A stretch of 28,177 bases of DNA. Origin: Chlamydiota bacterium (GTDB lineage: Bacteria; Chlamydiota; Chlamydiia; Chlamydiales; SM23-39). Made by a program: the position numbers and the translations under genes. Positions 12,695 through 13,860 of this stretch are shown piece by piece. Every line of letters begins with the position of its first letter. Position 1 is the stretch's first letter. Location: NCBI GenBank assembly GCA_048498835.1, contig JBEHXF010000024.1:1-28177 (forward strand). Reading direction: 5' to 3'. Below the pieces are notes generated by a model. The model saw only the letters and a list, made by a program, of their open reading frames with translations, made no database searches and was not told the origin of the DNA.

Positions 12695-13282
12695 ATGAAT
12701 GTGCAGAGACCTATCAATGATTTGCTAGATGACTTTAAAAATGCTTGGGATCTTCCGGCTACAAGCAGGCAATTAGAGGAGTGGGGAAAAACCCATGCTG
12801 AACTAATCAATAGAATCAGTACTAACATCCAGGATTTACCAGAAACTGATCGGATACGGCAGTTATGGACATCGTTTTTAGAAAAAATGACCTTTTTCAC
12901 AATGCGAAATGAAAATTCGGAAGAAGAATTTCGAAACGTCTGCCAAGTGTGCCAAGATTTGAGTGAAGAGATTGCAAAGCGTACTTTTGACCTGGCTGGT
13001 GGATCTATGTCGCCTGTATTTGCCTCTGTAGATGCTGAAGAAAGTGAAAATTCTCTTTCCTTGCCTAGAGCCCCTTCGGCTGGATATCCTCTTCAGAGGT
13101 CCATTGCCATGATCTATCCTTCTCCCAAGACTCCTTCTTCCTCTCCTAATTTAGAAGCTTTGGCAGAGTTACAGGATATTCCTCTCCATCCTACTCCCTC
13201 TCAAACGAACGAAGAGTCTAAAAAACCGGTAGAACAGGTTTCTGCTTCTCAATCTCGATGCGGTGACTGCTTGATCGCTTAA
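12695..13282 (+). CDS. Orphan paralog family member 2 with C-terminal CaaX (SRCGDCLIA*); candidate host-prenylated effector
   Basis: GGAG SD, family motifs and a Ser/Pro-rich linker. The end reads TGC GGT GAC TGC TTG ATC GCT TAA. Confidence 0.8.
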   Translation: MNVQRPINDLLDDFKNAWDLPATSRQLEEWGKTHAELINRISTNIQDLPETDRIRQLWTSFLEKMTFFTMRNENSEEEFRNVCQVCQDLSEEIAKRTFDLAGGSMSPVFASVDAEESENSLSLPRAPSAGYPLQRSIAMIYPSPKTPSSSPNLEALAELQDIPLHPTPSQTNEESKKPVEQVSASQSRCGDCLIA

Positions 13283-13341
13283 TTTTCGAAGTTCAGTTGA
13301 CTTTCTTTACTTAATTTTTATAAAAAAATCTGGAGTTGTTT

Positions 13342-13860
13342 ATGTCTGCAATCGATCGGTCGCGTAGGGACCTTGTGCCTTTGTTTCAGGAATTTGCTGA
13401 TAGCTGGGAGCAAGAGGTGCTTGAAGGTACAATTATGAAGAAAGGAGAGGTTGTGAAAAAATTCTCCAAAAAAAACATAGAAAAATGGAATGCAATACAT
13501 CAGAATTTAGTTGATGAGTTAACTAAAAAAATGGGGGAATGCAGGAAGGATGAAGGGATCAAAAAGGTAGAGAAAAAATGGAATGAGTTTCTCACTTGTT
13601 GGGCAGGAGTTGAAATGGTTAAAGATAGACAAGAAAAAAAAGTTATCTTGGCGAAGTTTTGCAACACAAGCAAAGAGTTGATTTCTCTGTTTAAGAAGCA
13701 AATCATAGACCAATCCGAGATTGTGTCTGAGCATTTCCCCTTGGTGAGATCAAATCAAATGTATCCAGCGAATCCTGAATCTGCTTCCAGATTGAGAGAG
13801 CTTGAAAATCCTCTTCAAGATGGGGCAAGAACCTCTTGCGGAGGATGCCAGATTAGTTAA
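13342..13860 (+). CDS. Orphan paralog family member 3 with C-terminal CaaX-like motif (TSCGGCQIS*)
   Basis: GGAG SD 6 nt before ATG 13342, and family motifs. The end reads TGC GGA GGA TGC CAG ATT AGT TAA. The stop overlaps the convergent lysS stop (TTAA, 13857-13860). Confidence 0.8.
   Translation: MSAIDRSRRDLVPLFQEFADSWEQEVLEGTIMKKGEVVKKFSKKNIEKWNAIHQNLVDELTKKMGECRKDEGIKKVEKKWNEFLTCWAGVEMVKDRQEKKVILAKFCNTSKELISLFKKQIIDQSEIVSEHFPLVRSNQMYPANPESASRLRELENPLQDGARTSCGGCQIS

Follow-up and report, generated by a model that had tools for sequence, protein, structure and literature searches.

Tandem orphan proteins of an uncultured chlamydia end in CaaX motifs that suggest anchoring by host prenylation

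Introduction

Why would two neighboring orphan proteins of a chlamydia end in lipidation signals of the eukaryotic type? The window analyzed here, a stretch of 28,177 nucleotides, carries two tandem open reading frames (ORFs), P1 and P2, whose products end in CGDCLIA and CGGCQIS. An initial annotation of the window read them as secreted effectors that are prenylated by the host cell. Host prenylation of effectors is established for AnkB and Pel of Legionella and for SifA and GtgE of Salmonella (PMC4951486, PMC13081727, PMC7542358, and PMC13423502), and this literature gives 7 to 11 CaaX proteins per L. pneumophila strain.

Results

A lineage-specific insert between cysS and lysS

The source organism is an uncultured chlamydia, with a genome of 1.97 Mb that is ∼97% complete. 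The nearest relatives of its cysS gene (80 loci) belong to chlamydiae or unnamed bins, and the genome carries type III secretion genes, namely, SctU (above the cut-off), FHIPEP/SctV, an HrpJ/CopN-like gene, and two secretins, as expected from the earlier proposal of a chlamydial, host-injecting bacterium. The region of interest contains the following features:

10193-11599, plus strand: cysS, left flank
11596-11844, plus strand: small HTH-like (winged-helix-like) gene, following cysS in several relatives
11847..12188, plus strand: 113-aa orphan within the insert that holds the trio, to which it shows no detectable relationship
12236..12652, plus strand: third paralog, 138 aa, with the same predicted bundle and the shared L-x-R…P motif; its end is without a Cys tail
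12684..12687, plus strand: GGAG, ribosome-binding-like site before P1
12695..13282, plus strand: P1, 195-aa orphan with a predicted four-helix bundle (about residues 7-100), a Ser/Pro-rich disordered linker, and terminal CGDCLIA
12941..12952, plus strand: second CxxC of P1 (CQVC, residues 83-86), inside predicted helix 4
13259..13282, plus strand: P1 tail (SQSRCGDCLIA-stop), Cys(-7)-x-x-Cys(-4)-Leu-Ile-Ala-stop, with a predicted farnesylation site and a candidate S-acylation site
13332-13335, plus strand: GGAG, ribosome-binding-like site before P2
13342..13860, plus strand: P2, 172-aa paralog of P1 with a predicted four-helix bundle (residues 3-130), a linker, and terminal CGGCQIS
13837..13860, plus strand: P2 tail (ARTSCGGCQIS-stop), Cys(-7)-x-x-Cys(-4)-Gln-Ile-Ser-stop
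13857..15434, minus strand: lysS, right flank, convergent

The trio formed by P1, P2, and the third paralog is embedded in an insert with a GC content of 40-45%, flanked by genes of ∼50% GC. Twenty related loci carry either other, unrelated orphans behind cysS or none at all, and because the orphans of the relatives differ, we regard the cysS-lysS junction as an insertion site for lineage-specific genes. The winged-helix-like gene, which also follows cysS in seven related loci, is possibly an uncharacterized chlamydial regulator. Both sides of lysS serve as insertion sites for unrelated orphans in five related loci, one of which (L017) has two tandem proteins with RING-like starts near lysS. 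In the window, a second tandem orphan pair (156 and 161 aa; 15488-16440, minus strand) lies on the other side of lysS; its members share 29% identity (E = 1e-12) and have no Pfam family and no CaaX ending. Positions 16440-16817 (minus strand) encode a 125-aa protein with a lipoprotein-like signal (assigned by eye) and no Pfam family, which is conserved near lysS in two relatives (L004 and L005). A scan for promoters and terminators gave chance-level results.

P1 and P2 are genes with matching C termini

The ORF list places the start of P2 at a TTG codon (13336). The GGAG site lies 6 nt upstream of the ATG at 13342, the protein database entry for P2 is the 172-aa form, and this ATG is most likely the start. 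P2 scored poorly in a codon model trained on housekeeping genes and was missed by the first gene caller; we consider it a real gene because of its ribosome site, its paralogy, and its confidently predicted core (mean pLDDT, 71.5). Its stop overlaps that of the convergent lysS. Neither P1 nor P2 matched a Pfam family at an E value of 0.01 or an NCBIfam family at 0.001.

As the initial annotation had described, both proteins have Cys at positions -4 and -7, Ile at -2, and Ala or Ser at -1, and the tails follow a Ser/Pro-rich linker whose composition (Ser+Pro, 31% of the final 93 residues in P1 and 21% of the final 42 in P2) and low pLDDT suggest disorder. The last 20 positions hold three Lys/Arg residues in P1 and one in P2, with no polybasic patch, and hydropathy (19-residue Kyte-Doolittle mean) reaches maxima of only 0.48 in P1 and 0.51 in P2, so that neither protein has a hydrophobic segment.

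P1 and P2 belong to a family of three paralogs

By BLASTP alone, the similarity of P1 and P2 is weak (20% identity, E = 0.004). Their paralogy nonetheless holds without the tails: with the last 12 residues removed, shuffle z scores were 5.8 for P1-P2, 8.2 for P1 and the third paralog, and 11.2 for P2 and the third paralog (0-1 of 2000 shuffles scoring as high), and a profile of any two members placed the remaining one at the top of 9051 ORFs (E = 0.003, 1.5e-7, and 9e-9). The motifs L-x3-F-x3-W, W-x3-H-x2-L, W-x2-FL, and L-x-R…P are kept across the alignment. No Cys tail was seen in the 60 bases past the stop of the third paralog. The 113-aa neighbor was ruled out as a paralog (shuffle z, -0.6 to 0.6). 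Thus, the initial description of two paralogous ORFs was correct in that both are real and related, but the family has three members and the second ORF is shorter than listed; the tailless paralog, the second CxxC within P1, and the wider CaaX repertoire described below had been overlooked.

Outside the source genome, the trio has no homolog that we could find, in agreement with the orphan status first assigned to both ORFs. P1 retrieved only itself from 5.8 billion proteins (107-342 aa), P2 only itself from 1.84 billion representatives, and the three-row trio profile only the trio members from 5.8 billion proteins. The profile likewise matched only the source genome among 400 genomes (one unscored), P1 yielded a single weak, stop-interrupted match (E = 0.002) in 40 related genomes, no trio member was found in metagenome and viral contigs, and P1 had no usable match in the protein atlas. 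Judged by these searches, the trio is a new, lineage-specific protein family. Selection on the two tails is therefore visible only within the pair. Here, the tails keep both Cys residues, the Gly, the Ile, and the stop, while the whole proteins are 20-24% identical. Since the tails share ancestry, they represent one event kept twice and not two independent ones.

Predicted structures and the possibility of a metal site

AlphaFold2 models built on the three-row alignment predict the four-helix bundles listed above, followed by low-confidence tails. Almost throughout residues 103-195 of P1, and in residues 128-142 and 155-172 of P2, the pLDDT falls below 50; the tails do not dock on the bundle in either model, and an accessible, unstructured C terminus is thus predicted for both proteins. 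Fold searches returned generic four-helix bundles only; the two best matches (Z 10.4, rmsd 3.1, 112 aligned; Z 9.2, rmsd 3.0, 97 aligned) were both to a designed protein, and Foldseek gave no match at an E value of 0.001 or better. Likenesses to FAT, talin, and FRB were not taken as indications of function. No catalytic domain was found in P1 or P2.

The terminal CxxC could instead be half of a metal site or disulfide, its fit to a CaaX motif being incidental. P1 has four Cys residues arranged as two CxxC motifs (83/86 and 189/192), which could together make a metal site, P2 has Cys67, Cys86, and Cys107 besides its tail, and in the alignment Cys83 of P1 pairs with Cys107 of P2. However, P2 has no counterpart of the other CQVC cysteine, and none of these Cys residues is present in the third paralog, which nevertheless keeps the bundle motifs. 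The undocked tails also argue against such a site, as does their spacing: P1 and P2 differ by more than 20 residues in how far the CxxC lies from the last shared motif (L-x-R…P), whereas the distance from the CxxC to the stop is identical. We therefore consider a metal site or disulfide unlikely and return to prenylation as the preferred reading of the tails.

Both terminal words are known to be prenylated in yeast

The X residue of a CaaX motif sets the choice between farnesyltransferase (FTase) and geranylgeranyltransferase (GGTase), with Ala or Ser specifying farnesyl. The experimental prenylation-positive set of 489 out of 8000 words includes CLIA as well as CQIS (PMC9231725), and that source also places CLIA in the cleavage-positive set. 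The same work reports both words as positive by PrePS (the predictor suggested in the initial annotation, which passes 20% of all words), by FlexPepBind, and by an SVM, while one method scores CQIS negative. In a Ydj1 screen, enrichment reached 1.51 for CLIA (with only 12 and 16 reads) and 1.63 for CQIS, compared to 1.61 for CASQ and 0.13 for SASQ; yeast FTase takes a majority of CXXX sequences in this screen. By analogy with these yeast reporters, in which the motifs rather than P1 and P2 themselves were assayed, the terminal CaaX of both proteins is probably acceptable to a eukaryotic prenyltransferase.

CaaX termini are enriched in the source genome

A genome-wide count of CaaX termini, suggested along with the first reading, revealed a clear excess. 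Thirteen of 1891 ORFs terminate in the strict motif C-x-[VIL]-[SMQACL]-stop, compared to 1.57 expected from the mean of 40 internal offsets (maximum, 5; Poisson p = 1e-8), and a second gene caller gave 13 of 1927 ORFs (1.85 expected). This motif was chosen after the list had been inspected; all five variants tested gave p < 3e-4. Cys occupies position -4 in 13 of the 119 ORFs with fitting residues at -2 and -1 and in 22 of the 1772 others (p = 6e-8), and Cys at -4 alone shows a slight excess (37 versus 25.7, p = 0.02). The longer form found in P1 and P2, C-x-x-C-x-[VIL]-[SMQACL]-stop, occurs in 3 of 1927 ORFs (0.03 expected); the third ORF is short and scores poorly as coding sequence.

A similar picture emerged from an independent motif definition. 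When the 37 CXXX ends of the genome were matched by eye to the 489 experimentally positive words (PMC9231725), 9 were found in the set, compared to 2.3 expected (p = 3e-4, or p = 0.009 at a 10% base rate). One of the 13 strict ends, CKLL, is in the experimental negative set, and one other belongs to a doubtful ORF. CIIL is absent from the 489-word list yet marked as prenylated, as yeast Rho2, in PMC9231725, where CAIM and CSLL are unlisted experimentally and predicted positive. All 13 carriers fall outside the 688 conserved genes, in the remaining class of 1239, which also includes unsampled housekeeping genes, since conserved here means found in the DNA of relatives used for comparison.

These numbers bear on the possibility that an ancestral orphan ended in this way by chance and a duplicate inherited the ending, with the proteins staying in the bacterium or the tail being neutral. 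Chance alone should yield about 1.6-1.9 strict matches per genome, the P1 and P2 tails are not independent, and relatives have housekeeping enzymes with CaaX-like ends (a MenC-like enzyme and a flavin oxidase). Yet only about 2 of the 13 matches should be due to chance, and the retention of both Cys residues, Gly, Ile, and stop at such low overall identity also argues against a neutral tail, making this explanation improbable. We estimate instead that the genome holds roughly 10-12 real CaaX effectors, including P1 and P2.

Several of the 13 carriers are effector-like, namely, a Ser/Thr kinase (E = 3e-36), a NIF-like phosphatase (E = 2e-5), and a protein with weak similarity to a RickCE-like protease (E = 0.007); others are a membrane protein encoded upstream of sctU and single members of tandem arrays. 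Taken together, the carriers show a mild excess of Ser/Thr/Pro/Asn/Gln at their N termini (p = 0.019). The CSFQ end of a UCH-like protein falls outside the strict motif. The CIIL kinase is one of four tandem eukaryote-like Ser/Thr kinases (contig C10, 40577-45330) and the only one with a CaaX end. Small-orphan tandem arrays with similar M-A/T-S/A starts are located on contigs C27 (15975-18619), C20 (18500-21000), and C17 (19080-20897), with one member of each ending in CaaX. The share of CaaX members within tandem arrays is thus 2/3 in the trio, 1/4 in the kinases, and 1/5 in the C27 array. Three orphans lie directly upstream of sctU (contig C11, 16100-18640); one of them has a hydrophobic C-terminal stretch and ends in CKLL, the word from the yeast FTase negative set.

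Two further counts were set aside. Rab-type CC and CxC ends are in slight excess (4 versus 0.75 and 3 versus 0.6) but were not counted because they are mostly on recognizable bacterial proteins, and a DNA-pattern scan for the motif, which is blind to reading frames, was too noisy (23 matches versus 11 in the control).

Part of a phosphatase family retains CaaX ends across chlamydiae

The sequence examined from three genomes of the same genus amounts to 1.47 Mb out of ∼4.9 Mb. The strict motif ends 7 of its 1411 ORFs, compared to 1.85 expected; they comprise two housekeeping enzymes, one short doubtful ORF, one further protein, and three plausible effectors, one of which is a RING-finger protein described below. 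Genome G103 has 2 strict matches in 386 ORFs, which is not significant, and near cysS in other chlamydiae there are 0 in 1265 ORFs, below the expectation from the orphan rate of the source genome (p = 0.013). The trait is therefore uneven across chlamydiae. Breadth outside the family was assessed from the phosphatase and cysS loci.

The HAD/NIF-like phosphatase of the source genome (contig C14, 29106-30014; homologs in loci L270-L312) has a D-x-D motif and matches PF03031 at the E value given above. Searches found it in 6 of the 103 genomes of the family and in 20 of 400 from the order. The retrieved loci contain 27 distinct homologous ORFs that include a stop. Of these, 11, from five chlamydial families, have C-x-[IVL]-[MS] as their exact terminus (CVLM twice, CLVM, CIVM twice, CCIM, CWIM, CTIM, CVIM twice, and CIVS), and 16, some of them fragments or truncated, do not. 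Two metagenome homologs also end in such words (CSIM and CCIM), and two others are without the motif. The phosphatase tree leaves 13 of 22 inner branches open. A fixed position with a varying first and constrained second and last residues over long branches is what selection for farnesylation predicts, and the CaaX-tailed phosphatase is probably the best single test target for host prenylation in chlamydiae. As for the conservation across homologs that the initial annotation suggested checking, the tail is on two of three paralogs in the trio itself and no outside homolog was found, and this phosphatase of the same genome shows a terminal CaaX in 11 of 27 homologs. None of the 27 has the CxxC spacing, which is therefore special to the P1/P2 pair, a peculiarity that favors the metal or disulfide reading considered above.

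Other carriers behaved differently. Distant homologs of the CIIL kinase, which had matches in 13 of the 102 other genomes of the family, do not share its CaaX end, that of a CVVQ protein is present at 0 of 3 homologous loci, and a CAIM protein has no homolog in the family. In a relative (G003), a RING-finger protein (L241, 667-1131) ends in CCAIM, a double-cysteine, lipidation-type tail; of its homologs, five weak ones were found, none with a tail Cys at -4.

Modification inside the bacterium is the least probable reading

The tails might also be modified inside the bacterium, by a prenyltransferase of its own or by a peptide-modifying cluster of the YcaO/DUF692 type. Such a cluster is present on contig C36 (3345-8080), with a YcaO gene, a SagB-like gene (assigned by eye), and a DUF692/MbnB-family gene behind a 178-aa ORF that we take to be a doubled nitrile-hydratase-like leader precursor. 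This ORF ends in …CASCGGCAC, resembling the …TSCGGCQIS of P2, but P1 and P2 have no significant similarity to the putative precursor (E = 1.3) and are encoded on a different contig. For prenyltransferases, 15 prenyltransferase-domain proteins are reported in another chlamydia, Reclusachlamydia socialis (bioRxiv 10.1101/2024.11.28.625222), which qualifies the initial statement that bacteria lack CaaX prenyltransferases. In the source genome, none was found, in a weakly controlled search: PF00432 gave no match (its controls were silent, too), and PF01239, a short repeat model, gave no match there and none over the cut-off in 251 genomes. Modification by the bacterium would moreover leave eleven other CaaX ends unexplained, and we consider it highly improbable.

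A model for host-dependent anchoring

We favor, with a probability of about 0.72, the reading that P1 and P2 are type III effectors that would be farnesylated by the host and act as membrane-anchored helical adaptors on a flexible linker. The original proposal of secreted, host-prenylated effectors gains support from the CaaX enrichment, the word sets, the conservation in the phosphatase family, and the type III genes. Secretion, lipidation, acylation, target membrane, and partner are inferred, and the model takes them in four steps. P1 and P2 would first be injected into the host cytosol by the type III system; their genes are orphan, low in GC, and tandem, and the Ser/Thr/Pro/Asn/Gln content of their N termini is ordinary (65th percentile of conserved genes for P1 and 45th for P2). 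Host farnesyltransferase would then add farnesyl to the Cys at -4, after which the aaX residues would be clipped and the end methylated. Since the tails have no polybasic patch, S-acylation of the Cys at -7 could provide a second membrane signal, for which we see about an even chance once farnesylation has taken place. In the last and weakest step, the linker might hold the bundle off the vacuole or another host membrane, with the bundle serving as a non-enzymatic adaptor for a host protein. The tailless third paralog would represent a soluble version.

P1 and P2 could also be secreted and prenylated but act as decoys for host prenyl- or acyltransferases or as stalk mimics of Sey1/GBP-type GTPases. 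Such roles agree with the lack of a detected catalytic domain, and language-model features of P2 residues 1-135 were nearest to a Sey1 three-helix bundle (0.93, 140 shared features) and a GBP C-terminal domain (0.89). By the guide of that tool, however, this assignment is probably incorrect (agreement among 3 of the 10 top matches, and fewer than 170 features), Pfam searches at E values up to 10 found neither the Sey1 nor the GBP family (PF20428 and PF02841), and the fold searches gave generic bundles with no Sey1 or GBP among them. We regard these roles as very unlikely and retain the adaptor model.

Discussion

Our analysis suggests that this bacterium borrows host enzymes to pin injected proteins to membranes. 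The mechanism is a known one, placed here in a lineage for which our literature search found no report of a prenylated effector, and the motif feature is real. A paper of July 2026 names prenylated bacterial effectors from Legionella and Salmonella only (PMC13423502); the in silico screen of Al-Quadan (2011), as cited in PMC4951486, lists 56 bacterial CXXX proteins and may include chlamydial entries. If true, a repertoire in Chlamydiota would make a third lineage with prenylated effectors and an alternative to Inc anchoring, and it would imply that a CaaX pathway of the host is active beside the vacuole. The CaaX end would also offer a simple sequence handle for effectors of uncultured chlamydiae with unidentified hosts.

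We see even odds for a wider picture in which host prenylation would be a second effector anchor of environmental chlamydiae besides Inc proteins, with an old signal on the phosphatase (at least five families), tails gained and lost on tandem paralogs to sort them between membrane and cytosol, and P1 and P2 taking part in a Ras-like cycle of farnesyl and palmitoyl.

Among the closest parallels is Legionella with its AnkB and Pel/CMP effectors. According to the literature cited above, it, too, has a set of unrelated CaaX-ended proteins, comparable to the ∼10-12 estimated here, and anchoring by host prenylation would be common to both sets, the source organism being presumed intracellular. Legionella differs in belonging to another phylum and in using Dot/Icm type IV instead of type III secretion, no relation in sequence or domains was found, and the chlamydial case is a prediction from sequence. 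In Salmonella, SifA has a CaaX motif and is both prenylated and S-acylated, as proposed for P1 and P2, and GtgE ends in CTIL, the same word as one orphan of the relative G003; both are linked to geranylgeranyltransferase I (PMC4951486 and PMC13423502), whereas Ala or Ser as X in P1 and P2 points to farnesyl. P1 and P2 further differ from SifA and GtgE in being small four-helix bundles, as predicted, with no known enzyme domain.

Among eukaryotic proteins, the tails are most similar to those of the Ras/Rap2 type, which combine a CaaX motif with an upstream Cys and have no polybasic patch. The upstream cysteines of Rap2A are palmitoylated. With its CNIQ terminus, Rap2a is a substrate of FTase (PMC3188499). 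In contrast to Ras and Rap2, P1 and P2 have no GTPase domain.

Within chlamydiae, the established counterparts are the Inc proteins. These type III substrates are lineage-specific, are often encoded in tandem, present helical domains on the vacuole, and are anchored by a long, bilobed hydrophobic segment. Having no such segment, P1 and P2 are not Inc-type proteins; they resemble them in being lineage-specific, tandem, and helical but would be anchored by lipid.
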